Assembly (NCBI RefSeq): GCF_046105845.1
Contig: NZ_CP151004.1
DNA: 64,000 nucleotides
Reading direction: 5' to 3' (one strand)
Source of the DNA: Escherichia coli
GTDB lineage: Bacteria; Pseudomonadota; Gammaproteobacteria; Enterobacterales; Enterobacteriaceae
Positions 33,065 to 64,000 of the stretch are shown one piece after another. A program made the translations under genes and the position numbers. The notes beneath the pieces were generated by a model. It was given only the letters and a program-made list of their open reading frames with translations, did not search any database and was not told the origin of the DNA. Within the stretch, counting starts at the first letter, position 1. The number at the start of each line of letters is the position of its first letter.

Positions 33065-33631
33065 TCAGGGGGATTCATTACTCTTATTTGCCGGAAATTT
33101 TCTATAAATTGTGGAAACACCCACATCAAAAATCAGTGCAATACGCTGTCTTGATTCTCCGGCCTCGAGTAAGCGTCCAATCTGTGCCCACTGTTCGGTG
33201 GTCAACTTAGGACGGCGTCCACCTACTCTGCCTTTGTCGCGAGCTGCAGCAATCCCCGCCCTGGTACGTTCAACTATCAGTTCGCGTTCCATTTCAGCCA
33301 GGGCACCCATGACATGAAAAAAGAAACGGCCCATTGGGGTACTGGTATCAATACTGTCAGTCAGGCTTCGGAAATTCACGCCACGCTGGCGCAACTCTTC
33401 TATCAGCGTAACAAGATGCCGCATACTGCGTCCCAACCTGTCCAGCTTCCAGACAACCAGCGTGTCTCCTGCCGATAGTGTCCTGAGTAGTTTTTTCAGC
33501 CCCGGTCTGTCGGACTTAGTGCCACTGATTTTATCCTCAAAAATCCGCTCACATCCCGCGCAGTTCAGTGCATTACGTTGCAAATCGGTGTTCTGGTCAT
33601 TTGTTGACACGCGTACATAGCCAATAAGCAT
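33065..33631 (-). CDS. Pin/Gin/Hin-family DNA invertase
   Basis: MLIGYVRVSTNDQNTDLQRNAL N-terminus at 33631; close to remembered e14 Pin. Confidence 0.9.
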   Translation of the reverse strand: MLIGYVRVSTNDQNTDLQRNALNCAGCERIFEDKISGTKSDRPGLKKLLRTLSAGDTLVVWKLDRLGRSMRHLVTLIEELRQRGVNFRSLTDSIDTSTPMGRFFFHVMGALAEMERELIVERTRAGIAAARDKGRVGGRRPKLTTEQWAQIGRLLEAGESRQRIALIFDVGVSTIYRKFPANKSNESP

Positions 33632-33685
33632 GATCAATCCCCTGAATAAAAACCGTGGATGATGCCAGTTAGCCATTATCTCTGC

Positions 33686-34060
33686 ATTTTCATAAACGTT
33701 GGTTTGGGAGAAGCGGCGAAAAGGGATGTGGGCACAGGAGAAAATCAGATACCGGATATGTCAGCCTGGAAAAGAAATCCGAGTTCTAATCGCTGGAGAA
33801 AATTGCCTGATGGAACCATCATTCAAATGGGAATATCAGCATCAGGACCATTAGGCTCACCTGTAAATATCACCCTGCCGATATCTTTCAGCAATACCAA
33901 TTATTGTGTTGTTGCATCGTACGATAATGCACGGTCAGGTGTGTCAACAATGGTTAGTTTTGCAGCATTGCCTGTTTCACCATCGCAATTTTCCCTGATG
34001 TCATCTGTGACTGAGCAAGGAATAAATCCTTTTGCTTACTGGATTGCTTTTGGAGATTGA
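33686..34060 (+). CDS. alternative tail-fibre C-terminal variable segment, promoterless (expressed only after inversion)
   Basis: Frame open through the crossover site (…VGLGEAAK…); no independent start within the segment. Confidence 0.65.
   Translation: MFINVGLGEAAKRDVGTGENQIPDMSAWKRNPSSNRWRKLPDGTIIQMGISASGPLGSPVNITLPISFSNTNYCVVASYDNARSGVSTMVSFAALPVSPSQFSLMSSVTEQGINPFAYWIAFGD
33687..33712. promoter_or_regulatory. 26-bp inversion crossover site (gix/pix-like), invertase-proximal
   Basis: ttttcataaacgttggtttgggagaa; reverse complement shares 14/14 leading bases with the site at 35536. Confidence 0.8.
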
Positions 34061-34063
34061 TAA

Positions 34064-34483
34064 ATGGACAGATACTTCTATTCACAAAAAGAAAATGGTT
34101 TTTTTACCGATTTAAATAAAGCACCTTCAGATGCTGTTGAGATAACCACGGATGAATGGCTGTTACTACTGGATGGTCAGGATAATGGCATGAAAATAGT
34201 CAGCAATCAGGAGGGATATCCGGTTTTGATAGAGCAACCACCTTTATCAAAAGAAAACCTTATTGCATTGGTGGAGTTGAAAAAAAGAAAACTTATTAAT
34301 GAAGCCAACGAGCACATGAACAGCAGACAATGGCCAGGTAAAGCGGCTATTGGTCGTCTGAAAGGTGAGGAACTGGCGCAATATAATTTATGGCTGGATT
34401 ATCTGGACGCACTGGAACTGGTTGATCCCTCCAGTGCTCCAGATATTGAATGGCCTACGCCTCCGGCAGTTCAGGCCAGATGA
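34064..34483 (+). CDS. alternative tail fibre assembly protein
   Basis: 139 aa ending DIEWPTPPAVQAR, Tfa-family C-terminus. Confidence 0.75.
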   Translation: MDRYFYSQKENGFFTDLNKAPSDAVEITTDEWLLLLDGQDNGMKIVSNQEGYPVLIEQPPLSKENLIALVELKKRKLINEANEHMNSRQWPGKAAIGRLKGEELAQYNLWLDYLDALELVDPSSAPDIEWPTPPAVQAR

Positions 34484-35057
34484 CATCCGGTGCGGTGCTG
34501 GTATCTGTTGCCGTCACCGCGTCAATGTAATCCAGCGCAGCGTTAAGTCGGGCGGTTTCTGCCTGCGTCAGATTCCGTCCGGCCTGTAATTTCAGTTGAA
34601 TCAGACTGATAGAAGCCATTGCTGTATCAATCAGCGACTGGCGCTGTGCTTCTGCTGCATCTACTACGGCGCTATGCTGTGCCTCGGTATCCGTCACCCA
34701 TTTCTCACCATCCCATTTATCGTATGGCGTTAACGGGGCGATAGTGGTTGTATTATCAGGGTAATCACCCGGTGCTGTGATTTCTTTTGATTCTCCTGTT
34801 TCGGTGCTAAAGACAATTTCACCGCGATGGTCTGGTACATATTCCCATGAGTTAAAATCTGCAGAGCGGCAGATTGCATAACCAGCTTTGTAGGTGCCTG
34901 GAGCATCTAAACAGGAATATGCCGGAATGCCGACACCAACAGCAAGATATTCAGTTGAAGCTGAAATATACTCCCGACTCATGACGTCAAAGTTATAAAC
35001 AGTAATTTCTCCTGCCATAGTGGCAATTAATTCACTGTTTAATTCTGCGTTATTCAT
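34455..35057 (-). CDS. tail fibre assembly protein (current orientation)
   Basis: 200 aa ending VIWPELPEA; directly downstream of H. Confidence 0.8.
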   Translation of the reverse strand: MNNAELNSELIATMAGEITVYNFDVMSREYISASTEYLAVGVGIPAYSCLDAPGTYKAGYAICRSADFNSWEYVPDHRGEIVFSTETGESKEITAPGDYPDNTTTIAPLTPYDKWDGEKWVTDTEAQHSAVVDAAEAQRQSLIDTAMASISLIQLKLQAGRNLTQAETARLNAALDYIDAVTATDTSTAPDVIWPELPEA

Positions 35058-45037: not shown

Positions 45038-46804
45038 ATGAACACCACACTAACACCCGCAGATCTCGATCCCCGTCGGCAGGCCATGCTGCTGTACTTT
45101 CAGGGATACCGCGTAGCCCGCATTGCTGAAATGCTGGGCGAGAAAGTTGCAACCGTTCACAGCTGGAAAAAACGCGACAAGTGGAGTGACTATGGGCCGC
45201 TGGATCAGATGCAGCTCACCACCGCCGCACGCTACTGCCAGCTCATTATGAAGGAGCACAAAGAAGGGAAAGATTTCAAAGAGATTGACCTGCTGGCGCG
45301 CCAGTCGGAGCGCCATGCGCGGATCGGCAAGTTTAACAATGGCGGCAACGAAGCCGACTTAAACCCTAACGTTGCCAACCGCAACAAAGGCCCGCGCCGT
45401 CAGCCGGAAAAGAACGTTTTCACCGATGAACAGATTGAGAAGCTGGAAGAAATCTTCCATTCCTCCATGTTCAACTACCAGCGCCACTGGTGGGAAGCCG
45501 GAAAAACCAACCGCATCCGCAACCTGCTGAAGTCACGCCAGATCGGCGCGACCTTCTATTTTGCCCGTGAAGCCCTGATTGACGCCCTGCTAACCGGGCG
45601 TAACCAGATTTTCCTTTCCGCCAGCAAGGCACAGGCCCACGTCTTTAAGCAGTACATCATCGACTTCGCCAAAGAAGTGGAGGTGGAGCTGAAAGGCGAT
45701 CCGATGGTGCTTCCTAACGGGGCCACGCTGTACTTCCTCGGCACCAATGCCCGCACGGCCCAGAGTTACCACGGCAACCTGTATCTGGATGAATATTTCT
45801 GGATACCGAAATTCCAGGAGCTGCGCAAAGTGGCTTCCGGTATGGCTATTCACAAGAAATGGCGACAGACCTATTTTTCCACGCCATCCAGTCTGACACA
45901 CAGTGCTTATCCGTTCTGGTCCGGTGCGCTGTTCAACCGTGGGCGCAACAGAGCCGATAAGGTGGACATCGACCTGTCCCACAGCAATCTGGCCCCCGGC
46001 CTGCTGTGCGCAGACGGGCAATACCGCCAGATAGTCACCGTGGAAGATGCGGTGCGCGGCGGCTGTAACCTGTTCGACCTTGACCAGTTGCGCATGGAGT
46101 ACAGCCCTGACGAATACCAGAACTTGCTGATGTGCGAGTTCGTGGACGATCTCGCGTCCGTGTTCCCGCTCAGCGAATTGCAGGCGTGCATGGTGGACAG
46201 CTGGGAAGTCTGGACCGACTTTCATGCACTGGCCCTGCGCCCGTTTGGCTGGCGCGAAGTGTGGATCGGTTATGACCCGGCAAAAGGTACGCAGAACGGC
46301 GACAGCGCCGGATGCGTGGTGGTGGCACCGCCAGCCGTGCCAGGCGGTAAGTTCCGCATTCTTGAGCGTCACCAGTGGCGCGGAATGGACTTTCGCGCCC
46401 AGGCTGACGCCATCAAAAAACTGACCGAACAGTACAACGTGACCTATATCGGCATCGACTCAACCGGCGTTGGTCACGGGGTTTACGAGAACGTGAAAGC
46501 GTTTTTTCCTGCCGTCCGGGAGTTTGTCTACAACCCCAACGTTAAAAACGCCCTGGTACTCAAGGCCTACGACATTATCAGCCACCGCCGTCTTGAGTTT
46601 GACGCCGGGCACACCGACATTGCGCAGTCATTCATGGCAATCCGTCGCGCCACCACCGCCAGCGGCAACCGCCCGACCTATGAAGCCAGCCGCAGCGAAG
46701 AAGCCAGCCATGCCGATCTGGCCTGGGCAACAATGCACGCACTGTTTAACGAACCACTGCAGGGCGAGTCCGCCAATACCAGCAATATTGTGGAGATTTT
46801 TTGA
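45038..46804 (+). CDS. P: terminase large (ATPase) subunit (P2 gpP-like)
   Basis: 588 aa, divergent from O. Confidence 0.9.
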   Translation: MNTTLTPADLDPRRQAMLLYFQGYRVARIAEMLGEKVATVHSWKKRDKWSDYGPLDQMQLTTAARYCQLIMKEHKEGKDFKEIDLLARQSERHARIGKFNNGGNEADLNPNVANRNKGPRRQPEKNVFTDEQIEKLEEIFHSSMFNYQRHWWEAGKTNRIRNLLKSRQIGATFYFAREALIDALLTGRNQIFLSASKAQAHVFKQYIIDFAKEVEVELKGDPMVLPNGATLYFLGTNARTAQSYHGNLYLDEYFWIPKFQELRKVASGMAIHKKWRQTYFSTPSSLTHSAYPFWSGALFNRGRNRADKVDIDLSHSNLAPGLLCADGQYRQIVTVEDAVRGGCNLFDLDQLRMEYSPDEYQNLLMCEFVDDLASVFPLSELQACMVDSWEVWTDFHALALRPFGWREVWIGYDPAKGTQNGDSAGCVVVAPPAVPGGKFRILERHQWRGMDFRAQADAIKKLTEQYNVTYIGIDSTGVGHGVYENVKAFFPAVREFVYNPNVKNALVLKAYDIISHRRLEFDAGHTDIAQSFMAIRRATTASGNRPTYEASRSEEASHADLAWATMHALFNEPLQGESANTSNIVEIF

Positions 46805-47832
46805 TGGGAAAGAGTAAGAAGAACCGCGCTGCGGCGACGAAACAGATCCAGCATAAAAACCAGACTTCAGCCGAAGCATTCAGCTTCGGTGATCCCGTTC
46901 CTGTTCTGGACCGCCGCGAACTGCTGGACTATGTGGAATGCGTACAGATGGACCGTTGGTATGAGCCACCAGTGAGTTTCGACGGCCTGGCGCGAACCTT
47001 CCGCGCCGCCGTACACCACAGCTCACCGATTGCAGTAAAGTGCAACATTCTGACCAGCACCTATATCCCTCACCCGTTGCTCAGCCAGCAGGCTTTTTCA
47101 CGTTTTGTGCAGGACTATCTGGTATTTGGTAATGCCTACCTGGAGAAACGCACGAACCGCTTCGGTGAAGTTATCGCCCTTGAACCTGCCCTGGCAAAAT
47201 ACACTCGACGCGGATTAGACCTGGATACCTACTGGTTTGTGCAATACGGTATGGCAACCCAGCCGTATCAGTTCACGAAAGGCAGCATCTTTCATCTGAT
47301 GGAACCGGATATTAATCAGGAGATCTACGGCCTGCCTGGCTATCTTTCTGCTATTCCATCCGCTCTGCTCAACGAGTCCGCCACGCTGTTCCGCCGGAAG
47401 TATTACATTAACGGCAGTCATGCAGGCTTCATCATGTACATGACCGATGCCGCGCAAAACCAGGAAGATGTGAACAACCTCCGCAACGCGATGAAAAGCG
47501 CCAAAGGTCCGGGCAATTTCCGCAACCTGTTTATGTACTCGCCTAACGGCAAAAAAGATGGCATTCAGATTATCCCGTTATCGGAAGTCGCGGCGAAGGA
47601 TGAGTTTTTGAATATCAAGAACGTGAGCCGGGACGACATGATGGCAGCACACCGTGTGCCGCCACAAATGATGGGGATTATGCCTAATAATGTTGGGGGA
47701 TTTGGGGATGTGGAGAAGGCGAGCTTGGTCTTTGTTCGTAATGAACTGATTCCTTTACAAAAAAGACTGATGGAAGTAAATGTCTGGCTCAATGAAGAAG
47801 TGATTGTATTCAATAGATACATTTTAGAGTAA
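46801..47832 (+). CDS. Q: portal protein (P2 gpQ-like)
   Basis: 343 aa. Confidence 0.9.
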   Translation: MMGKSKKNRAAATKQIQHKNQTSAEAFSFGDPVPVLDRRELLDYVECVQMDRWYEPPVSFDGLARTFRAAVHHSSPIAVKCNILTSTYIPHPLLSQQAFSRFVQDYLVFGNAYLEKRTNRFGEVIALEPALAKYTRRGLDLDTYWFVQYGMATQPYQFTKGSIFHLMEPDINQEIYGLPGYLSAIPSALLNESATLFRRKYYINGSHAGFIMYMTDAAQNQEDVNNLRNAMKSAKGPGNFRNLFMYSPNGKKDGIQIIPLSEVAAKDEFLNIKNVSRDDMMAAHRVPPQMMGIMPNNVGGFGDVEKASLVFVRNELIPLQKRLMEVNVWLNEEVIVFNRYILE

Positions 47833-47838
47833 AAAAAT

Positions 47839-47856
47839 GGGCACCATGAGGTGCCC
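47839..47856 (-). terminator. rho-independent terminator of the 474-aa NTPase gene
   Basis: Hairpin gggcacc-atga-ggtgccc followed on the minus strand by a T7 run. Confidence 0.7.
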
Positions 47857-47862
47857 AAGTTG

Positions 47863-49287
47863 TTACTTACGTGTTTCAACTATATTCAGCCCCTTATAAA
47901 GGCTTTGATGGATATATACAGAACCAGTATTTGGCAACATTAAATCAGCATCTTCACATCGGAATCTAGCCGTACCGGAATTGCCCAACCGGACACCAAT
48001 CACAGAAGCATTAAATAGAGTTTTCATCAATTCACGAGAAGTATAGCGCTTACAAAGGTCAGGCGCTTTCTCTTCAATCTTACTGATGAATTCTTCTGTA
48101 GAATTATATCTATGCTGCGTCTGACGTAAAGATTCCAATAGCTCACCAAAATGAGGGTAGAGCCTTTTGTATTCTTGTTTTAAGTCCTCAACTTTCCAAG
48201 CGCTGTACCGTTCTTCAGCTATTCTAATTATATCCTTTTTTATTTCAGAAGCATTAGCATCACAGCGTTTTTGGCATTCTTGCAAAAACTGAATAACTTC
48301 TCTTGGGCGCAAAAATGTGCGCTTCACCAAATAGTTAAACGGTGAAATACTCCCTCTCATTTCACCTTCCTCAAAAATATCATCTATAGTTATATTTTCC
48401 GGCAATCTGGCGTTCACCATATCTTTCAACAACTCTGGTGTCCAGATTATTTCTTCTTCAATTGCTCGGTGTTTATCTTTATCATCAAATTCCAGCCCTT
48501 GATAAATATCAGAGCGTAAAAATGTTACAATATGAATACCTTTGGCTCTAGTATCAGAATAACTATCATTAATATCTTTTGTTGCCTTCAACAAGCCAAT
48601 CAAAAGGCTTTTGGCATCATCCGATCCATCCCAAGAATCATCTAATCGATCAGTGGCAATTAGCACCCCAATATCTGTACAAATTTCTTTAAGCTCGTCA
48701 AGGATGATTTTTATTATTTGAGGTGTCAATGGTGCTTGCGAAGCATCCTTATTAAACCCCACAGCATATCCGAAAGCCTCAAAATTGAATGAACTTAATC
48801 CCGAGAGTAACTTCCTTGCAGTTCCCAAAGTAGTTGGCGATATACCACCATAGTTATCAGAAACAAATTTTTTAATTCTAGCAAGGGCCTCCCGAGGTCT
48901 TTTCTCTGAAAATTGCCTACCTGACCTAATAATTTCTGCCGCAGCCTCAACAGCTATTGCAAATTTCCAAGCATTACAATGTGCCTGTTCGGGTAACAAC
49001 CCTTGCTCTTGATATTGTTTTAATGCTCCCCAAGCATACTGGTCTGGGGTCATGACATTTACGATAACGTCCTGCCCATATTTTGCTCTTACCAACCTTG
49101 GGAGTTGGGTAAAGATGGATGATTTCCCAGCCCCCTTTCTTCCAAGAAAATGGGCACTATAGAAACTCAGAGCTTGCTCAACTTGAGGAGTATTGATGAA
49201 ATAATCAGCCAACCTTCTATCAGCTTCAGCATCGACAGTACCAAAGTTGAGTCCCTTAACTGTAAGGCCTAACGCATCTAACCGCAC
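47863..49287 (-). CDS. P-loop NTPase of unknown family; accessory cargo between portal gene and cos
   Basis: 474 aa, GTG start with AAGGA RBS; Walker A GRKGAGKSS; possible Walker B LIATDRLDD; AT-rich by eye. Confidence 0.6.
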   Translation of the reverse strand: MRLDALGLTVKGLNFGTVDAEADRRLADYFINTPQVEQALSFYSAHFLGRKGAGKSSIFTQLPRLVRAKYGQDVIVNVMTPDQYAWGALKQYQEQGLLPEQAHCNAWKFAIAVEAAAEIIRSGRQFSEKRPREALARIKKFVSDNYGGISPTTLGTARKLLSGLSSFNFEAFGYAVGFNKDASQAPLTPQIIKIILDELKEICTDIGVLIATDRLDDSWDGSDDAKSLLIGLLKATKDINDSYSDTRAKGIHIVTFLRSDIYQGLEFDDKDKHRAIEEEIIWTPELLKDMVNARLPENITIDDIFEEGEMRGSISPFNYLVKRTFLRPREVIQFLQECQKRCDANASEIKKDIIRIAEERYSAWKVEDLKQEYKRLYPHFGELLESLRQTQHRYNSTEEFISKIEEKAPDLCKRYTSRELMKTLFNASVIGVRLGNSGTARFRCEDADLMLPNTGSVYIHQSLYKGLNIVETRK

Positions 49288-49372
49288 GATAATTCCTTAA
49301 TTGGTAAACTAAATTTGAACTTGATGCCAACAAAGATAATATCAATTTAATTAAAAAGAAAGCTGTTGCGCG

Positions 49373-49393
49373 CGCTCGTATCCCCGCCACGCC
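49373..49393 (-). other. P2/186-type cos site
   Basis: Reverse strand reads GGCGTGGCGGGGATACGAGCG, cf. remembered P2 cohesive end GGCGAGGCGGGGAAAGCAC. Confidence 0.55.
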
Positions 49394-49772
49394 TGCCCGC
49401 TTTATGCAGTGGTTTTCATGCACATGCATGACATGAGCAAAAGCCCGCCAGTTCTGGCGGATCTGAGCAAAGACGATCCTCAATCGATCATGCGATTTCA
49501 TGCAGCATAGTCATGCACTGTCAAAGAAGTAAAAATCCGTATCTGAATGGCCACTTGAAAAACGGATCATACGGGTTTACAAAGATGAATGTTCGCTGTG
49601 AACGGGAAGCGGAAGTTAACTTTCAGATAACATAATCCATATGCACGAGAACCTCTAAAATAGAATGGGACACCTAAGCGGGGTACTTACAACGATTCTT
49701 TCCATATTCACAGTTAACACTCTGTTTGGCGTATTTTTATTCAAATAGCAAACACCAATAAAAGGAGTTTCC

Positions 49773-50108
49773 ATGAACAATATTCCCCCTATACCACAGT
49801 TAGGAATTTATGTCTCAAAAATCGATCCCACCCTACGTATCACTGTAACCGATGTTGATATTGTTGATGGTGAGGATGATTCTCCTGATGATGAATTGTT
49901 TTATTTAGTCCACTGGATCGAGGGGGAAGATGAAAGTGATATGACAGCAATGGGATTTGAGCTAGACCCAGTAGAGTGGCAGGCTTTCGTTGAATCTGAG
50001 CAATTAGTGTTTGAGCGTGATCCGTACATGGATTCAATCCCCGAAAATTCAAACTTGGCAAAGATTCGGGATTTTCTCATGAAGACTAAACAGAATGATC
50101 ATTCGTAA
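49773..50108 (+). CDS. hypothetical acidic protein
   Basis: 111 aa, D/E-rich, no motif recognised. Confidence 0.4.
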   Translation: MNNIPPIPQLGIYVSKIDPTLRITVTDVDIVDGEDDSPDDELFYLVHWIEGEDESDMTAMGFELDPVEWQAFVESEQLVFERDPYMDSIPENSNLAKIRDFLMKTKQNDHS

Positions 50109-50300: not shown

Positions 50301-50534
50301 TTAATGCAGCCAGCTGTCGTCCTCCCACACCTTCTGCATAATTTTCATCACTTGTTTTCTTTCTTCATCCAGTTGCAGTCCGGTTAGTTCCACACCGTTA
50401 GAGCTACCTTTGCGAATGCGAATTACCGTTTTGGGATACAGGGGGCGCAGATTGCGGTAAAGCTCGGATTCAAGGGCGTCCAGGGTAGACTGGCTAATCT
50501 TCTGCTCTTTATCGATCATTATTTCAATGCGCAT
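50301..50534 (-). CDS. DinI-like protein (C-terminal module of a Tum-type antirepressor)
   Basis: ORF 50301-50606; MRIEIMIDKEQ...KVWEDDSWLH DinI fold signature. Confidence 0.7.
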   Translation of the reverse strand: MRIEIMIDKEQKISQSTLDALESELYRNLRPLYPKTVIRIRKGSSNGVELTGLQLDEERKQVMKIMQKVWEDDSWLH

Positions 50535-50544
50535 AAAAGTCACC

Positions 50545-50733
50545 TCAGCTGATGACATCCATTGAGCGGTTGTATTCGTGGCTTCTGATTTTTGCCATGA
50601 GTTCATCAGTCAATTCAGAAACCCACTGCAGAGCCAGCCCCTTCTCTTCATCACTACACTCACTAGCCGCTACAAGCTTAAGAAAAAAATCAATGCGCTG
50701 GAGCTTCAAAGACTCCAAAAAATAGTCCTGCAT
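50545..50733 (-). CDS. small protein upstream of DinI-like gene (Tum N-terminal-like position)
   Basis: 62 aa; LexA box in its promoter. Confidence 0.45.
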   Translation of the reverse strand: MQDYFLESLKLQRIDFFLKLVAASECSDEEKGLALQWVSELTDELMAKIRSHEYNRSMDVIS

Positions 50734-50885: not shown

Positions 50886-53300
50886 TTAATATAGGTTCCG
50901 CCACTTATCATCTTCCTTCAGACGCTGGTTCCGATAGAAGATACGCAGGCCTGCTCCTGACGGAATACTGCCGCCGCGAAGGAGCAAATCGACTTCTTTC
51001 TCGCTGCCATCAAATCCCCTGGACTTCAGTTCATAGACGAGCTGCTGTCGCTGATGGTCTGTAATTCGCTGTTTGTAGTCTTTACGCCGTTTCGGTTTCA
51101 CCTGGCGTAACCTTGCAGCCAGTTCCCGGCGCTCTTTTTTGCTCATACTGTGCAGGTAATCGTGCAACTCCTTGTCATTCATACGGGTAATATCCGTTCT
51201 GGAGTCCGCATCAGCTGATTTGTCTTTCCCTTGTTGGTTCAAATTTTCAGCAAGGGGACAGTTATTGCCACGAGTCCAAGGGGCGCAAGCGCCCTGGTCG
51301 GCTGCCGCCTCCTGAACGTCAACGACCTTACGAACCATTTTCCATTTCATTGCATGAGTGCAGATCTTGCCCTGTACAATGGGTGACCAGATGCCATAAA
51401 TACGAATACCGTGATCGCCATAAGCGGTCGGCTCTTCGTTAATTTCATAAGCTGTTCTGATAAGGTGATATTTGCGGGGAACCAGTACGCCGCCCTGCTT
51501 CATGATGTAGGTGGCAAAACAGCCAGCATCAGCGGCAGCCAGGATGGCATCAAGGCGCGGGTCATCCAGTACCGGCGCACCTGCTTTTTTGTCACCCTGT
51601 TGCCTTGCCGCCTGACCAGCCAGCAAGCGAAGTTCACGGTACGCCTGACGCCCCGGAATACCAAAGAAGCGGAACTGCTGAACACGATGCAGAGACGCCC
51701 AGGCATTAACGTATTCGGCGTTATCACGCAGGGATTTACCCGTTTCCTTGCTGATCTCGCCAGCCAGACCACGTCCGTCAATGTTCTTACTGATGTATTT
51801 CGCGATGTAGCTTGTCGGCGTTCCTTTGCGCGGGTTTATCAGCTCAGACTTAAAGCGTGGACCCGTGTTATTGCCCAGTTCCTCGCGGTCTTCACGGATG
51901 GCAAACTTACGCAACAATGCAGTAATGGCGCGGCGGTCTTTTTTGCGCATGAAACACATGAGATGCCAGTGCACAGTACCGTCATGGTGCGGCTCAGCCA
52001 CCCGCACGCCATACCAGCGCAACCCGGCTTTGTGCATAGCCTTACGAAATGCAGCAAACATGCCGACCAGATAATCGCTGCTTTGTCTTACCGTCGCATT
52101 TGTCCAGGTTGGGTTTGGTCTGCCGTTATTGAGCGTAGAATGGAAACGTGACGGACAGGTAATGGTGTAGAAAACGGCGCAGTCACCACGCATTTCCGCG
52201 ATAAGCTCCAGACCTTTAACACAGGCCATCATCTCATTGCGGCGGTGCGCCGGGTTGCTGCTGCTGGCGTTTACCACGTCTTCCATATCCAGCGTGTCGC
52301 CGTCTTCGTTCACCAGTTCATGAGAACGGAAAAACTCCAGCGACTTGCGGCGCTGCTCACGTTTATGCGTCACTGCTTCATAGCTGACATAGGGAGATGC
52401 TTTTTTGCTGACCAGGCAGACAGCACGCAACTGCTCTTCCCGCCATTCGCAACGTATCTTCCACAATTTTCGATACCACCAGTCGGCGCAAAGCATACGT
52501 GCCAGCGAACCCGGTATGAGTTCATAGGGCACGGGTTTGCGGCGGTTTCTTTTCCGACGGAGTTTCTCAAACGCAGGCGGGATAACATCCAGACGCAGGG
52601 TTTCCGCTGCCACCTTTTCCCATGTCTTGCGGATTTCTTCTGGCTTAACGTCATCGGTGGCATACAAATCACCACAAGCGGCCTCAAGACACATGCTCAT
52701 ATGCGCTGCTACCAAGGTGGACAGGCGTTTTACCTGATCCTGACTCATTTCAGGCAGGATCAGCAGGCCCTCAAGCCCTTGATGGCTTGCCATAAAACGG
52801 AAAGAAGCGGATAGCTGACTGTCGCGTACATACTCCAGTCGCTCCAGACATGACTTAATCGTCTCACGCAAATAGCGGGAATAAGCCTTTGGCCTGCCCA
52901 GGCTGCTGAAGTATTCGATACGTTGCATCAGCGGCTTGCTGATGTGGGTGGGCTGGGCGCTGACGTCCGCCAGAATGACCATGTCCGGGTTAAAACGCTG
53001 CTGCTCATGCGCCAGCTTTGCCCGACTAATGAGATTATCCTGCTCCATTTCGCGCTGGACAGGATCACGGGATTCATTAAAGAAATAACGCTCCCAGACC
53101 TGCTCACTCAGTGCATCGCGGCGCAGCTGTTCCTGCTCGTTATCGGCAGCGTACAGAGTGATCATGTTTGAAAGTGCAGACTCCGGCGCAACTTCCGCCG
53201 GGTCCAGATAAGGGTTAATGGCCTTTTTCGGGCCGTTCCATGAAAATGCTGCAGCGGCCTCGTTAAAGCCGCTAGAGTTGCTCATATCATCATGACTCAT
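50886..53300 (-). CDS. A: replication initiation endonuclease (P2/186 gpA-like)
   Basis: 804 aa; rolling-circle motif region HWHLMCF. Confidence 0.85.
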
Positions 53301-55955: not shown

Positions 55956-56080
55956 GATGCAACATTCCTCGTTTAATGTTGATTAATCAGGACGAATACG
56001 GATCGTTTGTATTTTGTGAACATCATAAACATACGATCGCATAATGAAATCGTCAAGACAAAAGTTCACTTGGAGTGACC
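55956..56080. promoter_or_regulatory. immunity switch region between apl-like gene and cI
   Basis: Intergenic; imperfect inverted repeat gatcgtttgtat...atacgatc (56001-56039). Confidence 0.4.
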
Positions 56081-56650
56081 ATGAATTTGGAGAAAGGCGG
56101 ACGAGGCGCTATAGAGCGCATGGTAGAAGCATATGGCTTCAAGACTCGACAGGCGTTGTGCGATCACTTAGGAATCTCTAAAAGTACTCTCGCCACACGC
56201 TATATGCGTGACTCATTCCCTGCTGAATGGGTAATCCAGTGCGCACTTGAAACGGGCGCCTCGCTTAACTGGCTCACGACCGGACATGGTTCAAAGCAAA
56301 CTTCAGGTAATACAAATACTATGGAAGTCGTTAAATATGTATTATCTGATGGAACCTTGCAGGAAGATGGTTTTTATATTTTCGATAAAGAATTTCTACC
56401 ATCTACGCTCAAAAATCCGTTTGTAATCACCGATAACAATTCCGTTTTTATTTGCGATAAAGAGTTTAACGATATTCGTGACGGCAAATGGGTAATAAGT
56501 ATTGATGCCGAAGTAACAATCCGCGATATCACTCGTTTACCTGGTGGAAGAATCTTAGTTGAAGGTGGAAATAGGGCTTTCGAATGTAAAAAAGAAGAAA
56601 TCGAAATTATTGGAAAAATTATAAGCATAACAGTTAAGTACTTTGAGTAA
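56081..56650 (+). CDS. cI: CI-type immunity repressor (186 CI-like)
   Basis: ATG at 56081 after GGAG; N-terminal HTH (…AYGFKTRQALCDHLGISKSTLATRY…) and CI-like C-domain. Confidence 0.75.
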   Translation: MNLEKGGRGAIERMVEAYGFKTRQALCDHLGISKSTLATRYMRDSFPAEWVIQCALETGASLNWLTTGHGSKQTSGNTNTMEVVKYVLSDGTLQEDGFYIFDKEFLPSTLKNPFVITDNNSVFICDKEFNDIRDGKWVISIDAEVTIRDITRLPGGRILVEGGNRAFECKKEEIEIIGKIISITVKYFE

Positions 56651-56700: not shown

Positions 56701-57624
56701 ATGTCAACTCAAAAATTAAAATTTAGCCATATCAAAAACGATCTGAAAGCAATAGTTATGCAGAATCGTGGAGGGCAAAAAGTTATTGAGCGTATACTCC
56801 TAGCCTATGGCTTCAAGTCACGACAGGCATTATGTAATCATCTAGGTATTTCCCAAAGTACTATGGCCAACAGATATGCACGTAATACCTTTCCTGCAGA
56901 TTGGGTTGTTATATGTTCCATAGAAACAGGAGCATCAATTGAATGGTTAGTTCTTGGTTCAGATACTGCTCCTTCATCAGAGCAATATTCTGAAAAACAT
57001 GCCGTTAATGGCCTTTGCAATGAAGTATACATTCCCACTATAAAGTTCGATAATGAAAAACTCATGAATTTTAACCGAGGGGGTAAGGCAACAATAGAAC
57101 GAATTGTCGAGGCTTACGGTTACAAAACGCGCCAAGCATTAGCTGATCACCTAGGTATTTCAAAAAGCACATTAGCCACACGATACATGCGTGACATTTT
57201 TCCTGCAGACTGGGTTTTGCAGTGTGCAATAGAAACGGGCCATTCTATTGAATGGATTTCATTTGGTACAGGAGAAATGAAAAACACAAAAAATAAAGAT
57301 ACTTTAACATTAGTGAAAAAAGTATTAATCAATGGCAAGTTAATAAATGATGGCTCATATTTATTTGACCCATGCTTTCTACCTTCCAATTTAAAAAATG
57401 CATTCGTAGTATCTACCGAAGACTCTGAATTAATATGTGAAATGGGTTTTAAAGATGTACATGATGGTAAGTGGCTAGTAAATATTGATGGAGAGAATTC
57501 ATTTAGAATGATAACTCGACTACCTAAAGGACGAGTTTATATTTCATCCCAAAATCACTCTTTTGAATGTTCGCTTACAGACATTGAGTTTATTGCAAAA
57601 GTTATTATAAGTTGTTTACATTAA
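56701..57624 (+). CDS. CI-repressor paralog with a duplicated N-terminal HTH domain
   Basis: 307 aa; two tandem copies of GG..IER...AYG.K.RQAL..HLGIS.ST.A.RY.R..FPA.WV, then a CI-like C-domain; AT-rich. Confidence 0.6.
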   Translation: MSTQKLKFSHIKNDLKAIVMQNRGGQKVIERILLAYGFKSRQALCNHLGISQSTMANRYARNTFPADWVVICSIETGASIEWLVLGSDTAPSSEQYSEKHAVNGLCNEVYIPTIKFDNEKLMNFNRGGKATIERIVEAYGYKTRQALADHLGISKSTLATRYMRDIFPADWVLQCAIETGHSIEWISFGTGEMKNTKNKDTLTLVKKVLINGKLINDGSYLFDPCFLPSNLKNAFVVSTEDSELICEMGFKDVHDGKWLVNIDGENSFRMITRLPKGRVYISSQNHSFECSLTDIEFIAKVIISCLH

Positions 57625-57649
57625 GTAAATTTTTCATGGAGACTTCATA

Positions 57650-59167
57650 GTGAAATGTGGTGATTGTAATTGGAACTGGGATGAAGAAACTACCTTTATA
57701 TTAGACGACGAAGAGGAAATTCTTTCCAAAGACAAACTTAATCGGAGACACTATGCAGAATATCTATATTTTTATCTTAAGGAAAAGGGGCAAAAGAACA
57801 ACACGGTAATCAACCTTAATGCAGAATGGGGAGCTGGTAAAAGTTTTTTCATAAAGAGATTTTATAACTCAATAAAAGATGCACACCCATGCGTTTACAT
57901 TGATGCCTGGAAGCAAGACTTTTCTGATGATGCATTTTTAACCCTTTTTTCTTCTTTGTCACAACAATTGCAAACATATGCAGGAAAACTTGATGCTCGA
58001 TTGATACAAAGCGGCCATGCTATCGGACGCTTTACAAAAGGTGTTCTACCTGAAATCATATCTGGCCTAATCAAGACTTATGCAGGAGTAGATAACGTAG
58101 GTGATATAGCCAAAGAAGCCTCATTAATAATGCTGAAGGAACACCAGGAAAAACTGAAGAGCATTAAGGTATTAAAAAAAGAACTAACGTTATGGTCTAG
58201 GTTGGCATATGAAAATAGTTTTTCATGTCCTATATTTATCTTTATAGATGAATTAGACAGATGCAGGCCAGATTATGCAATTTCTCTTTTAGAGATTGTT
58301 AAACATATATTCGATATTAAAAATTTTGTCTTTATTATTGCTACTGACACAGATCAATTACAACATTCAATCAAGAATGTTTACGGTAATGATTTTTCCG
58401 CAAATGACTATTTAGGCCGTTTTTTTCATAGAAGATTTACTTTAAAACAACCTGAACTTAAAGATTTAATTAATGGTGTTATTGGTGATTATATTGGTAC
58501 CGATTTTGAAAATATCACATCAAAAACATACCCACTAACAGCAACATTAGAAGACTTTTCAATAAATATTTCCAACGTATTTGAAGCATTTGGGTTAAAT
58601 CTAAGAGACTCAATCCGAAATACTGAAAGGTTAATAGACATTCTTAAATCTGATTTAGTCAAAAAGAAAGTAGATTATATTTTTATAATTTCGCTAATGA
58701 TTATATATGATAAGGATCGTCAAATTATAGATGGACTAATTGGTCGAAGAAATGCAGCACAACGTTTCACTGATTCGATAAAGCAAAGCTCCAATTTAAA
58801 AGGTGTTTCTCAAGCCATCCTTGAATTAAATCTTGATACAAATCAGCAAAGAATAGGTGTCAATTATATCTATAGAACGGCGAGCAGTAGATTATTCATC
58901 TCACAGATCGAGCCCAAAATAAATTTAACATTAATAAATTACTTAGATGTTGCATTGTATTTTATTAATAATATAAACATGCTTAAATCAAGTATAAAAA
59001 ACAATGGGCAAAATTCACTAATGATTATATCTCAACAAGGCCCTATTGATGGTGATACAGCTATAAAGTATTTGCAAGGAGCCCTTATAGAGAATGGTCT
59101 GAATACATCTTTTTATGCCTTACATAATTACATTGAATTAATTGAACTGGCCACATCATTTGATTAA
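57650..59167 (+). CDS. KAP-family P-loop NTPase
   Basis: 505 aa, GTG start after GGAG; Walker A NAEWGAGKS; Walker B IFIFIDELDRCRPDY; AT-rich by eye. Confidence 0.7.
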   Translation: MKCGDCNWNWDEETTFILDDEEEILSKDKLNRRHYAEYLYFYLKEKGQKNNTVINLNAEWGAGKSFFIKRFYNSIKDAHPCVYIDAWKQDFSDDAFLTLFSSLSQQLQTYAGKLDARLIQSGHAIGRFTKGVLPEIISGLIKTYAGVDNVGDIAKEASLIMLKEHQEKLKSIKVLKKELTLWSRLAYENSFSCPIFIFIDELDRCRPDYAISLLEIVKHIFDIKNFVFIIATDTDQLQHSIKNVYGNDFSANDYLGRFFHRRFTLKQPELKDLINGVIGDYIGTDFENITSKTYPLTATLEDFSINISNVFEAFGLNLRDSIRNTERLIDILKSDLVKKKVDYIFIISLMIIYDKDRQIIDGLIGRRNAAQRFTDSIKQSSNLKGVSQAILELNLDTNQQRIGVNYIYRTASSRLFISQIEPKINLTLINYLDVALYFINNINMLKSSIKNNGQNSLMIISQQGPIDGDTAIKYLQGALIENGLNTSFYALHNYIELIELATSFD

Positions 59168-59253: not shown

Positions 59254-60306
59254 ATGGCAGTACGAAAACTCACCACAGGAAAATGGCTTTGCGAATGTTA
59301 CCCCGCCGGACGTAGTGGGCGTCGTGTGCGTAAACAATTCGCCACCAAAGGCGAAGCACTGGCTTTTGAGCGTCACACGATGGAAGAAACCGAAGCAAAG
59401 CCCTGGCTGGGTGAATCAGTGGATCGTCGAACACTGAAAGACGTGGTTGAGCTATGGTTCAAACTACATGGTAAATCTCTGACTGCTGGGCAGCATGTCT
59501 ATGACAAATTGCTGCTGATGGTTGACGCTCTGGGCAATCCCCTTGCAACTGATCTAACCTCTAAAATGTTTGCCCACTATCGAGATAAACGCCTGACAGG
59601 TGAGATCTACTTCAGTGAGAAATGGAAGAAAGGAGCAAGCCCGGTCACCATTAACCTGGAGCAAAGCTATCTAAGTAGTGTTTTTAGCGAACTATCCCGC
59701 CTGGGCGAATGGTCGTATCCGAACCCACTGGAGAACATGCGAAAATTCACCATCGCAGAAAAAGAGATGGCATGGCTTACCCATGAGCAGATTGTTGAAT
59801 TACTAGCTGATTGCAAACGTCAGGACCCAATTCTGGCACTGGTAGTTAAGATATGCTTAAGCACAGGCGCACGCTGGCGAGAAGCCGTAAATCTTACCCG
59901 CTCACAGGTGACCAAATACCGAATTACCTTTGTAAGAACGAAGGGGAAGAAAAACAGAAGCATCCCTATCAGTAAAGAGCTTTACGAAGAGATCATGGCG
60001 CTTGATGGGTTCAATTTCTTCACAGACTGCTATTTTCAATTTTTATCCGTGATGGAAAAAACGTCTATCGTGCTCCCTCGCGGTCAACTCACACACGTTC
60101 TGCGCCATACGTTTGCGGCGCACTTCATGATGTCGGGTGGAAACATTCTGGCTTTACAAAAAATTCTCGGACACCACGATATAAAAATGACTATGCGTTA
60201 CGCACATCTGGCACCGGATCATCTGGAAACGGCGCTCCGTTTCAATCCTCTGGCAACGCTGCCAAGTGGCGACAAAGTGGCGGCAGCGGTTGGCATTACC
60301 CCGTAA
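59254..60306 (+). CDS. int: tyrosine integrase (P2/186 Int family)
   Basis: MAVRKLTTGKWLCECYPAGRSGRRVRKQFATKGEALAFE; LSTGARW; HxLRH; terminal Y region MRYAH. Confidence 0.9.
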   Translation: MAVRKLTTGKWLCECYPAGRSGRRVRKQFATKGEALAFERHTMEETEAKPWLGESVDRRTLKDVVELWFKLHGKSLTAGQHVYDKLLLMVDALGNPLATDLTSKMFAHYRDKRLTGEIYFSEKWKKGASPVTINLEQSYLSSVFSELSRLGEWSYPNPLENMRKFTIAEKEMAWLTHEQIVELLADCKRQDPILALVVKICLSTGARWREAVNLTRSQVTKYRITFVRTKGKKNRSIPISKELYEEIMALDGFNFFTDCYFQFLSVMEKTSIVLPRGQLTHVLRHTFAAHFMMSGGNILALQKILGHHDIKMTMRYAHLAPDHLETALRFNPLATLPSGDKVAAAVGITP

Positions 60307-60442
60307 TAACCACCACTGACCACCAACCCAACTTATTGTTTTTACTCTAAGTTATTGTTTTCATTAACCCGTTTACATAAATGGGTAATTTGTATTGTTG
60401 AATAGCATCTGATGAGAAATTGATGCTAATATTATAAACATA

Positions 60443-60616
60443 CTAGATTAAATCAATCTTGATATCATAGCTTTCAAGACCAGTCATTTTTTCCCGTGCA
60501 GTAAACTGGATACTGGTAACTTCTTTCCCGGTCTTTTTCTTAAGCTCAATGATTTTTTTTGTTATATATTCAGAAATATCTGCTTCTGTTTTTGTTTTTA
60601 ACTCTTCAATGTTCAT
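60443..60616 (-). CDS. GnsA/GnsB-family small protein
   Basis: ORF 60443-60709; MNIEELKTKTEADISEYI...FTAREKMTGLESYD matches remembered GnsB. Confidence 0.7.
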   Translation of the reverse strand: MNIEELKTKTEADISEYITKKIIELKKKTGKEVTSIQFTAREKMTGLESYDIKIDLI

Positions 60617-60788
60617 CATTTCCTCTTTTAGTCTGTTATGACTTTCCTGGTACACAGTAGTGTCAATTATATGGAGCAAACGTATAAAAGATAAGATGAA
60701 ACATCGCAATAATCAACATACGACGGTCTAAATTTCACACAAACAGATAAAGATGATTATCATTTATTATCAATGCATTAGAATCAAA

Positions 60789-61019
60789 TCAATTCAAGAG
60801 TCTCATTGCTGCTTCCAGAATTTCTTCTGAAGTTACATGTCGATCCGCTGCTACATAAATGACTTTATGATCTCCGGTCAGAGATGGAAACCCTGCAGCC
60901 ATTACAGTGAGGTGTGTTGTTTCGCCATTTGGATATTCACGCATGATGGTGTTAACTCCGGTCATCACTGGCACTACCATTGCTGGTTCAGAGTTAAAAA
61001 AAACTATTATTTTTTTCAT
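60789..61019 (-). CDS. hypothetical small prophage protein
   Basis: ORF 60789-61058, internal ATG at 61019. Confidence 0.35.
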   Translation of the reverse strand: MKKIIVFFNSEPAMVVPVMTGVNTIMREYPNGETTHLTVMAAGFPSLTGDHKVIYVAADRHVTSEEILEAAMRLLN

Positions 61020-61290
61020 AATGTTACCGTAATATGTGAGTATCCATCGACTAGACACTAAGCAAAAAAGCTCCCGAAGGAGCCTTCATTTTCACTTTCT
61101 TAAATCTAACGACAGACGGCTAACATTTAAGTATTGTGAAATATTATCAAATGTAATCATCATTGATTTACAAAAGATACATTTTGCCCCGAAAGGATTC
61201 CTGTCAGAAACATCAAAAGATGATGTTCTATACTGAGAACCATGGCAACACGGGCATCTAAAGTGAATATGGTTTGTAATATTTTCTACC

Positions 61291-61503
61291 TCAAAGTGCC
61301 ACTACATGAACAGCCGCGGGGCCTTTAGGTCCGTTCTCAATACCAAATTCGACTTCCTGATTCTCAGTTAACGTTTTGAAATCGTTGCTCTGAATAACTG
61401 AGAAATGGACAAACACATCTTTGCTACCATCTTTCGGCGTGATGAAACCAAAACCTTTTTCAGGGTTAAACCATTTCACTAAACCAGTCATTTTGTTAGA
61501 CAT
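61291..61503 (-). CDS. CspA-family cold-shock protein (CspI/CspB-like)
   Basis: [23 protein letters not shown]...VHFSVIQ RNP motifs; long AT-rich leader. Confidence 0.9.
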
Positions 61504-61866
61504 CATTATTACCTTTTGAAGAAGTTAGCCCTTGGGCAGAATGGTCCGAAAAAAAATATCAGAGAGAAAAACCAACAAGGAGATCTCAAGAGGTACAAAT
61601 AATAAAATTATAACAATGACTGCTTCAGATAATTTTGTAACAAACCAGAACACCATTAACGCATGATTAACCAACCATAGCAAGGATTACTTTTGTAAAG
61701 AAAAACACACGAATGAAACAATAGCTTTATTTATTAATAAAACGTGTCATTCTGTCTAATGACCTTTTATCTTACCCTTAAGATTTCAAGGATTTTGACT
61801 CATGGAAGAGTCCTTTTTATTTAAATTTCACATTCAGCGCTAAAAATAATCCGATTTAATATTAAT

Positions 61867-62894
<1,028 letters not shown>

Positions 62895-63215
62895 GGATAT
62901 TTATCAGGATTTATCGGCTTCAAATCCCCGGATATGTTAAATCTTACCTCACCAGTGATGGGCACTGGCGGGAGGAGGATGTCAATCTGATAAACACAGA
63001 GGTGACTATGGATTACACAAATCTACCAAAACAAACTTTTGCTGATTTAATCGCACTCAGGCAAGCAGTCGTAGCTCTAATCAACTTGTTGCCGGAGAAG
63101 GAAAAGGAATTAGTTAAAGCGCTTCTTAACAGAACTGCCGCCGATTTTTCATCATATCCACTGACAGATGACCTTGCGGACCTTCCTGAATTAATTGCAG
63201 CGTCCGCCATTAAGC

Positions 63216-63767
63216 TTACTGAAGAGATTTACCCTCCTCAAAAATCTTCACAAAATTCCTGCGAGTAACTTCAATGCAATAATCGTAAAACGCCGCAAAC
63301 TGCTCATCGCGGCGTTTTTTTTCATCTTCAGAAGGGATCAGCACCGACAATTTTTTATTCAGATCAGCGACGCTGCCCTCCAGTTTTTCAATGGGCGATT
63401 CAATATCATCTTTTTCTGACCGCAATGCCGTCGGTGGCGTCTTCAGAGAACCAGTAATTCTTCCCGGTAGCTTTCCTTTGTAGGTTATCCACACATTCTG
63501 CGCCTCTAAAATTATGGGGCGCTTTTCCGGCGACTGCTCATCCCCTACACATAACCCGGCAGCAACATCCAGGAATACCTGTCTGATTCTCATTCTGGCT
63601 GCTGCCTCATAAAACTCCAGCGCGGCACCTTCAACACGGTCCAGCGAGATGTCCAGGTCAAAAATTTCACCGTCAAAGCGTTTTTTGTCCCGTAAGGCTA
63701 CAGTTACCGCCACTTTATTCTCAAAATTGCGGACTCCTTTCACAACCAGTTCATAGTCTTGTGTCAT
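63216..63767 (-). CDS. hypothetical protein inserted between holin and endolysin
   Basis: ORF 63216-63788 (TTG); ATG at 63767 with purine-rich RBS. Confidence 0.45.
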   Translation of the reverse strand: MTQDYELVVKGVRNFENKVAVTVALRDKKRFDGEIFDLDISLDRVEGAALEFYEAAARMRIRQVFLDVAAGLCVGDEQSPEKRPIILEAQNVWITYKGKLPGRITGSLKTPPTALRSEKDDIESPIEKLEGSVADLNKKLSVLIPSEDEKKRRDEQFAAFYDYCIEVTRRNFVKIFEEGKSLQ

Positions 63768-63771
63768 TGGA

Positions 63772-63987
63772 TTACTCTCTTCTCGCAACCTTACGCCTGT
63801 CTTCTTTAATCTTGAAATAAAGGTTTGTCAGATACGTCAGCAGGCCAAAAACCAGACTACCCAGCACACCGATTGCAGCCCACTGTGACGGAGTTACTTT
63901 ATCGAGTAACTGCAATGCCCAGAAACCAGCATTACCAGCCGATGTGCCATAGGCGATACCTGTTGTTAACTTATCCATTGATTTCAT
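63772..63987 (-). CDS. holin (EssD/EssQ-like)
   Basis: [26 protein letters not shown]...[14 protein letters not shown] matches remembered EssD. Confidence 0.85.
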
Positions 63988-64000
63988 ATCCTCACCCCGA

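Follow-up and report, generated by a model that had tools for sequence, protein, structure and literature searches.

We analyzed a 64,000-nt stretch of DNA from Escherichia coli (contig NZ_CP151004.1 of assembly GCF_046105845.1), referred to as the window, in which a P2-like prophage spans ~26 kb to 60.3 kb. Between the portal gene Q and the cos site of this prophage lies an open reading frame (ORF) of 474 amino acids (aa), referred to as the ATPase gene, which is a new member of a known family, that of P2 Fun(Z), in a known cargo hotspot. The features of the locus are listed below:

47863-49287, minus strand: ATPase ORF, 474 aa, P-loop ATPase of the Sll1717/Fun(Z) family, with GTG start and TAA stop (from the ORF list)
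49287-49285, minus strand: GTG start codon of the ATPase gene (read from the sequence)
49294-49298, minus strand: ribosome-binding site AAGGA, 6 nt upstream of the GTG (read from the sequence)
49117-49143, minus strand: Walker A motif GRKGAGKSS, residues 49-57 (read from the sequence)
47838-47857, no strand assigned: hairpin of a bidirectional intrinsic terminator with an 8-bp stem including 6 GC pairs, followed by a run of seven T on the minus strand and preceded by a run of seven A on the plus strand
46801-47832, plus strand: portal gene Q, convergent with the ATPase gene (ORF list; phage portal protein in a 99.5%-identical E. coli record)
49375-49393, minus strand: 19-nt cohesive-end sequence of cos, GGCGTGGCGGGGATACGAG (pattern search; aligns with P2 cosL)
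50886-53300, minus strand: gpA-type replication endonuclease (ORF list)
47764-49366, no strand assigned: swap-in cargo cassette, which takes in the ATPase gene with its 5' region, the terminator, and the final ~70 nt of Q (blastn)
49336-49344, minus strand: candidate extended -10 promoter TGaTATTAT, inside the cassette (sequence motif only)

The ORF is intact over its full 474 aa, and its GTG start is supported because homologues start at the same residue (MRLE/DALG...). The Walker A motif, the GTG start with its ribosome-binding site, and the AT-rich composition (GC content of 36-43% over the ATPase gene vs. 52-58% in the flanking phage genes) had already been called in an earlier reading made from the sequence alone, referred to as the sequence-only reading, and all of them hold. 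The same reading had assigned the gene a clean terminator of its own. A hairpin with a T run is indeed present 5 nt past the ATPase stop codon. It also lies 6 nt past the Q stop codon and, because it adjoins both convergent stop codons, it is common to the two genes and bidirectional.

The cos 19-mer GGCGTGGCGGGGATACGAG was located by a pattern search with a chance expectation of 0.03 matches, and it aligns with P2 cosL, GGCGAGGCGGGGAAAGCAC. From the coordinates of Q, the ORF, and the cos 19-mer, the order is gpA (50886-53300), cos (49375-49393), ATPase gene, and Q (46801-47832), so that the ATPase gene is located between Q and cos and convergent with Q, as the sequence-only reading had it, with its start 88 bp from the cohesive end. 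In the P2 genome, cosL occupies positions 1-19, the terminator tQ positions 160-181, and Q positions 187-1221, and the Q-cos interval of P2 therefore lacks a gene, which agrees with the sequence-only reading. Comparison by blastn with two E. coli P2-like prophages carrying other cargo revealed that homology stops at 47763 or 47750 and is back, at 99.7% identity, at 49367 or 49366, 8 bp from the cohesive-end sequence. The variable block at 47764-49366 is bordered by 87-99.7% identical DNA, and because homology breaks at both ends, the gene, its 5' region, and the terminator form a replaceable 1.6-kb cassette abutting cos. A search for flanking inverted repeats, such as those described for fun, turned up no more than the terminator hairpin and some short repeats attributable to chance. 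A Klebsiella prophage aligns at 81% without a break from 47002 to 49519, through the gene and its flanks.

The cos-proximal gpA-gpQ interval of P2-like phages is a defense hotspot (Rousset et al. 2022, PMC9122126), which was analyzed anew in a 2026 preprint. Both by position and by variability, the ATPase gene is cargo of this hotspot, since it is exchanged for unrelated defense genes among near-identical prophages. Cassette mapping and the published hotspot together confirm the placement of the gene among the cos-proximal cargo of a P2-like phage; however, the cargo genes old and tin, which had been named as examples, lie on the gpA side of cos in P2, whereas the cassette in the window lies on the Q side. 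The novelty that had been implied for the position does not stand: the insertion position was already known because the hotspot is published, although its Q side is empty in P2, and the Q-cos slot is filled with other cargo in all seven other E. coli P2-like prophages inspected. These slot-mates reside on near-identical scaffolds, mostly in the same orientation as the ATPase gene, and comprise the following:

Same Q-cos site, E. coli P2-like prophage: TIR-domain protein
Same Q-cos site, E. coli P2-like prophages: RelA/SpoT-like GTP pyrophosphokinase
Same Q-cos site, E. coli P2-like prophage: retron Ec67 reverse transcriptase
Same Q-cos site, E. coli P2-like prophage: HNH endonuclease with hypothetical proteins
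Same Q-cos site, E. coli P2-like prophage: DUF4145 protein
Same Q-cos site, E. coli P2-like prophage: another P-loop NTPase
Same Q-cos site, E. coli genomes with this cos flank: DprA and DUF4062 proteins

Sequenced phages carry AIPR/Abi-alpha genes (Klebsiella phages), DUF4145 genes, and Ymh-type genes at the same site. The ATPase gene itself was found in only one of the 1264 complete E. coli genomes sharing this cos flank. The exact protein is encoded on 78 contigs, and the cluster at 90% identity spans E. coli, Salmonella, Enterobacter, and Citrobacter. Some E. coli assemblies contain truncated copies (386-396 aa). In P2-like prophages of Klebsiella pneumoniae, the same Q-cos slot is filled by a 92%-identical orthologue. 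Among complete E. coli assemblies, the ATPase gene is confined to that of strain 100181 (NZ_JBRERE010000002.1), where the whole P2-like prophage resides on a 149.8-kb record labelled plasmid pE100181_149. Here, the prophage could be integrated in a plasmid, or the record could be a mislabelled chromosomal contig.

To assign the protein to a family, we used the NCBIfam models. It matched NF047389, 'P-loop ATPase, Sll1717 family', with 284 bits (E = 2.5e-84) over residues 15-467 and profile positions 1-454 of 454, the curated cutoff being 75 bits. P2 Fun(Z) (528 aa, AAD03288.1) reached 209.3 bits on the same model (residues 9-518, positions 1-452). By these scores, the ATPase protein is a full-length, above-threshold member of NF047389, a family that also holds P2 Fun(Z). 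The fun(Z) product was examined because Foldseek searches of the AlphaFold database returned full-length matches, some of which were named 'FunZ protein' (E = 1e-28, template modelling (TM) score 0.80). When 59 representatives recovered with the window family were combined into a profile, this likewise matched Fun(Z) (132 bits, E = 1.3e-42, residues 4-525), and phmmer revealed intermediate sequences matched by both proteins, e.g., P0279, with E = 2e-11 for Fun(Z) and 4e-34 for the window protein. The superfamily comprises 4,323 clusters at 50% identity (E ≤ 1e-3). The analysis thus ties the window gene, the NCBIfam 'Sll1717' family, and Fun(Z) together. Of the earlier proposal of a defense or exclusion protein of unassigned family, defense stands as the best reading, whereas the family is now assigned.

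A Pfam scan of the window protein gave nothing significant, tblastn against 50,697 phage records gave no match, and searches of PDB sequences with the protein and the family profile gave only chance matches, so that no solved structure of the family was detectable by sequence. Foldseek against viral predicted structures (BFVD) gave nothing better than E = 1e-3, with low TM scores, and recovered no Fun(Z) model. The best PHROG match was 13260 (function not known, 4e-38), and the only match to a 'head and packaging' family had E = 0.54; homology to a morphogenesis or packaging protein, which would have spoken against a defense role, was not found in this search. In the literature search, 'Sll1717' was not mentioned and no mechanism of Fun(Z) was described.

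The relationship to Fun(Z) extends beyond the profile match, which covers both proteins over their full length. They share an ordered set of motifs, namely G-x-x-DAE at the N-terminus, G-x-KG-x-GK(S/T), WK, the Walker B motif hhhhD-x-x-D, GL-x-x-A-x-x-x-x-N, R-x-DI(Y/F), K-x-R, RPR(D/E), and YS. Furthermore, both genes are single-gene, AT-rich cargo of P2-type phages in convergent orientation, with a terminator of their own. In contrast, Fun(Z) is longer (528 vs. 474 aa), fun occupies the Z/fun slot between G and FI whereas the window gene occupies the Q-cos interval, and Fun(Z) lacks the clade-specific invariant motifs of the window protein (FDDKDKHR, RQxxHRY, the loop FNxEAFGxxxG, and H460). 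Judged by sequence, the ATPase gene and fun(Z) are distantly related in the manner of paralogues and occupy different hotspots of P2-type phages. Fun(Z) is among the oldest known prophage exclusion genes. The GenBank note on P2 fun(Z) reads 'cloned gene blocks growth of T5; nonessential; lysogenic conversion; confers sensitivity to FUdR' (fluorodeoxyuridine). Fun(Z) inhibits all tested Tevenvirinae, Vequintavirinae, and Markadamsvirinae as well as a Felixounavirus, by a mechanism given as unknown, and in BASEL phenotyping it inhibited more phage groups than RexAB, PifA, Old, and Tin (PMC8594841).

The structure was predicted with an alignment-based AlphaFold2 (AF2) model (predicted local distance difference test (pLDDT) 85, predicted TM score 0.83); a single-sequence AlphaFold model (pLDDT 37) was discarded. 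The predicted fold combines an ORC/Cdc6- and STAND-like AAA+ core with a helical lid and a C-terminal winged helix. In the AF2 model, the N-terminal segment is short and bears an invariant G-x-x-DAE, and the alpha/beta NTPase core contains a ~110-residue helical insertion between strands 2 and 3. The nearest solved folds include Cdc6/Orc1, DnaA, clamp loaders, TnsC, and MuB, and STAND proteins are among the structural matches (plant TIR-NLR with a score of 11.7; CED-4 and Avs5 with 10.0). Two further features were placed with the help of the model:

48631-48651, minus strand: Walker B region D213-R-L-D-D-S-W219, directly past strand 207-212 (invariance and AF2 model)
47878-48105, minus strand: C-terminal winged-helix-like domain, ~residues 395-470, three helices and a beta-hairpin (AF2 model)

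The winged-helix-like unit has an isoelectric point of 9.0. Invariance of residues was judged across 41 homologues. Invariant positions include G49, R50, K51, G52, G54, K55, and S56 of Walker A, and D213, L215, D216, D217, S218, and W219 of the Walker B region, which aligns with FIDGID of P2 Fun(Z). The same applies to R258 at the end of the sensor-1 strand, which is sensor-1-like, to the pair K272/R274, which would take the AAA+ arginine-finger position, and to R327-P-R-E (residues 327-330) in the lid. At the level of sequence, the NTPase motif set is complete, with Walker A K55, Walker B D213 accompanied by D216/D217, R258, K272/R274, and RPRE. Additional invariant motifs specific to the clade were observed at residues 153-183, 267-274, 388-394, and 460. 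H460 is located in the last strand of the winged helix, and the Gly-rich loop FNxEAFGxxxG is invariant although it is predicted with a pLDDT below 50. Domain and fold searches of the window protein revealed no nuclease, HEPN, TIR, SIR2, TOPRIM, or membrane domain, and the nuclease or HEPN motifs suggested for the C-terminal half were not found: this part consists of lid and winged helix instead. Distant relatives match the Pfam families ORC-CDC6-like, AAA_16, nSTAND1, and ATPase_2; two of them contain EAD7, an adaptor domain of conflict systems, and one has a vWA domain.

We compared the protein to other ATPases with a role in phage defense, including the groups that the sequence-only reading had named as possible relatives. 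With regard to STAND proteins, the predicted fold is ORC/Cdc6- and STAND-like AAA+ with a winged helix. However, STAND NTPases (Avs/NLR-like, NB-ARC, CED-4) possess sensor repeats (TPR, LRR, WD40) or a terminal effector domain, and the window protein has neither; core, lid, and winged helix take up all 474 residues of the model and leave no fused sensor or effector. Within the AAA+ group of ORC/Cdc6 and 'archaeal ATPase' proteins (SSO1545, PAB2304), it is set apart by the ~110-residue insertion and the lack of a Pfam match. Going by the model, the protein would work like a minimal AAA+/STAND-like switch, but it lacks both types of domain, sensor and effector, by which STAND immune proteins are defined. 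KAP/PifA, OLD, and PrrC/RloC are likewise P-loop NTPases that serve phage exclusion, but PADLOC, Pfam, and the fold revealed no affinity to any of them. For KAP/PifA, there was no Pfam, PADLOC, or NCBIfam match and no membrane insertion in the NTPase domain. For OLD (ABC-ATPase plus TOPRIM), the same databases gave nothing beyond chance matches to ABC-transporter P-loops (E ~0.16), and no TOPRIM domain was found. A PrrC/RloC-type or other HEPN-bearing ATPase was rejected because of the C-terminal architecture; the only invariant Arg/His motif, RQxxH (R-x3-H), lies in a non-helical segment and is not Rx4-6H.

DS-41 ('AAA2', WP_033812887.1), a single-gene ATPase system validated as anti-phage in DefensePredictor (PMC13092281), resembles the window protein as a single-gene P-loop ATPase of similar length. 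The window protein matched the DS-41 model NF053860 with E = 4.5e-6 over residues 188-371, i.e., Walker B, sensor 1, and lid; membership in the DS-41 family was rejected, however, as the score was 25.9 bits vs. a cutoff of 370. P2 Fun(Z) had no match to NF053860 at E ≤ 0.01. Within the searched parts of the Rousset 2022 supplement, neither the ATPase protein nor Fun(Z) was listed. The Walker A context of the window protein recurs, as FLIGRKGTGKST, in system 52 of supplementary file 2 ('MarR_2/AAA_16'), a hotspot system with 23 occurrences in E. coli. Its truncated sequence reached 30 bits on NF047389 and 22 on the model of DS-41; it was rejected as a family member and represents a sub-threshold distant relative.

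Regarding selection, comparison with the Klebsiella orthologue (81% nucleotide and 92% amino-acid identity) gave a ratio of nonsynonymous to synonymous substitution rates (dN/dS) of 0.029, which indicates that the ATPase gene is under strong purifying selection; a decaying pseudogene was rejected on this basis. Outside the prophage, the closest clade, at 50-70% identity, includes Gamma-, Alpha-, and Betaproteobacteria, Actinobacteria, Opitutales, and Armatimonadetes; because this identity holds across phyla, the distribution indicates horizontal spread of a tightly constrained protein. Relatives are encoded on twenty IMG/VR viral contigs, and on three of these a close relative lies in a P2-like A-cos-Q context. 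In Aeromonas, Comamonas, and Methylocystis, the gene is a solo insertion among housekeeping genes, and one relative adjoins an integrase in a metagenomic contig. In Thiohalobacter thiocyanaticus (AP018052.1; locus L013, 9572-11392), a 65%-identical orthologue has as direct neighbors a fused PARIS AriAB gene (PADLOC, 1.3e-62) and a DEAD-box helicase; the island they form interrupts the flagellar operon between fliK-type and fliL genes. No neighbor gene was conserved across the non-phage contexts inspected. In E. coli, 14-17% of defense genes are reported to have a known defense gene at a distance of up to 10 genes, vs. 2% for all genes (PMC13092281).

Taken together, we consider it moderately probable that the ATPase gene is a single-gene phage-exclusion module of the Fun(Z)/Sll1717 ATPase family, residing as a self-contained cassette in the gpA-gpQ hotspot. 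Exclusion would probably proceed by abortive infection. For expression, trigger, oligomerization, and outcome, we infer the following course. The gene would be expressed in the lysogen from a promoter inside the cassette, with TGaTATTAT (49344-49336) as candidate. An infecting, unrelated lytic phage would then supply the cue for the nucleotide switch to flip, and the Fun(Z) precedent suggests T5-like, T-even, Vequintavirinae, and Felix-O1-like phages as candidate targets. The protein would oligomerize, with ATP hydrolyzed between subunits, and the assembly would act via the winged-helix domain on DNA or a replication factor. Because no effector domain or partner exists, the assembly itself would have to be the effector, stopping phage (and possibly host) DNA metabolism. 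The cue could be thymidylate or dNTP (deoxynucleoside triphosphate) starvation or chromosome damage rather than one phage protein. Such a conserved metabolic or DNA-damage cue is suggested by the sensitization to FUdR by Fun(Z) and by the very high conservation of the clade; we hold this specific cue with much less confidence than the exclusion function. A more far-reaching proposal, which we regard as tentative and rather improbable, is that the 474-aa clade represents an effector-less immune ATPase that uses an ORC/Cdc6-like assembly as its weapon (e.g., by loading onto DNA or a replication factor) in response to a conserved metabolic or DNA-damage trigger. If true, the compact, conserved clade would be a good model for solving the mechanism of Fun(Z), and if the clade is active, it would offer an entry point for mechanism studies.

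Several results weigh against assigning the gene to phage exclusion. In pairwise BLASTP, the window protein and Fun(Z) share only ~21-22% identity (E = 0.028), hhalign against the single Fun(Z) sequence gave 72% probability, and function could have diverged at this distance. Within the family, a phenotype is known only for P2 Fun(Z) and not for the 474-aa clade. No model of PADLOC 2.0.0 recognizes the window protein (only PDC-M28C, E = 0.025) or Fun(Z); Fun(Z)-family genes are therefore missed by annotation with PADLOC-DB 2.0.0. No effector domain was found in the window protein, which leaves the killing or blocking step to inference. A consensus promoter scan found no -35/-10 pair at the TGaTATTAT region, and the promoter would thus be a bare sequence motif that such a scan misses. 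Moreover, 50-70% identity across phyla is unusual for sensors that track fast-evolving phage proteins, and three of six non-phage contexts are without defense neighbors.

The last of these points would fit a different type of cargo. As counter-defense or another lysogenic-conversion function, the gene could help the prophage or its host against bacterial immunity or environmental stress, which we consider unlikely. Cos-proximal hotspots do hold mixed cargo, such as an RNase A-like toxin with a contact-dependent inhibition (CDI) immunity gene across cos, and in several bacteria the gene stands alone among housekeeping genes without defense neighbors. However, the sole characterized family member, P2 Fun(Z), is an exclusion protein, the slot-mates are mostly recognized defense genes (TIR, retron, RelA/SpoT-like, AIPR), and a chromosomal solo gene at 50-70% identity across phyla is not expected of an anti-defense protein.

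The fold and the location raise another option, i.e., an accessory of the phage's own DNA metabolism that acts as an ORC/Cdc6- or TnsC/MuB-like loader at cos or ori in replication or packaging. Its appeal lies in the closest solved folds (Cdc6/Orc1, DnaA, clamp loaders, TnsC, MuB) and in the distance of 88 bp between gene start and cohesive end. Nevertheless, this role is very improbable: P2 has no gene at this place, and unrelated genes replace the ATPase gene in near-identical prophages, so that it is dispensable for the phage. The presence in one of 1264 complete E. coli genomes with this cos flank, the homologues in non-phage chromosomal contexts, and the absence of any significant PHROG hit among packaging or replication families argue against it as well. 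A further option, a selfish module of the addiction or toxin type or else a passenger gene in decay that has no current function, would suit a single AT-rich mobile gene of sporadic distribution with truncated copies (386-396 aa) in some E. coli assemblies, but it is equally hard to credit given a dN/dS of 0.029 over ~19% nucleotide divergence, the absence of an antitoxin-like partner from the ORFs listed for the cassette, and the unbroken 81% alignment to Klebsiella (47002-49519), which fits long residence in the slot.

Beyond the cassette, the prophage backbone includes the following genes, and the annotations of backbone genes are backed by the 99.5%-identical E. coli record:

45038-46804, plus strand: terminase gene (ORF list; annotation of the 99.5%-identical record)
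59254-60306, plus strand: integrase (ORF list)

A second cargo region, at 56701-59167 (plus strand), is flanked by the repressor (56075-56650) and int (59254-60306). Its first gene encodes an additional CI-like repressor paralogue (56701-57624) and its second a KAP-type P-loop NTPase of 505 aa (57650-59167), which matches the PADLOC candidate PDC-S20 (9e-78), PifA (1e-16), and QatA (7e-14). This region is a probable second defense cargo of the same prophage. In practical terms, the outcome is one of annotation: the prophage has a cassette of the Fun(Z) family at cos, on its Q side, and near int a KAP-type candidate.

The Z/fun slot of this prophage (33065-34483) lies between G (34455-35057, tail-fibre assembly) and FI (31750-32922, sheath). 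It contains a DNA invertase (33065-33676; PHROG 125, 1e-100) and oppositely oriented ORFs for a tail-fibre C-terminus and its assembly (33659-34483), an arrangement suggestive of a switch for tail-fibre inversion that takes the place of fun. Across cos from the cassette, on the side of gpA, 49773-50108 encodes a 111-aa protein (PHROG 17127, WP_001059831.1, function not known), and a DinI-like gene is found within the ORF at 50301-50606. Both are kept in four other inspected prophages, and different genes are present there in others; one prophage carries the aforementioned RNase A-like toxin and CDI immunity gene on this side, the far side from the cassette. Finally, the right flank of the prophage at 60350-64000 is 100% identical to Qin-type cryptic-prophage genes of E. 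coli (rrrQ, rzpQ, ynfN), and the P2-like prophage therefore adjoins or sits inside another prophage remnant.

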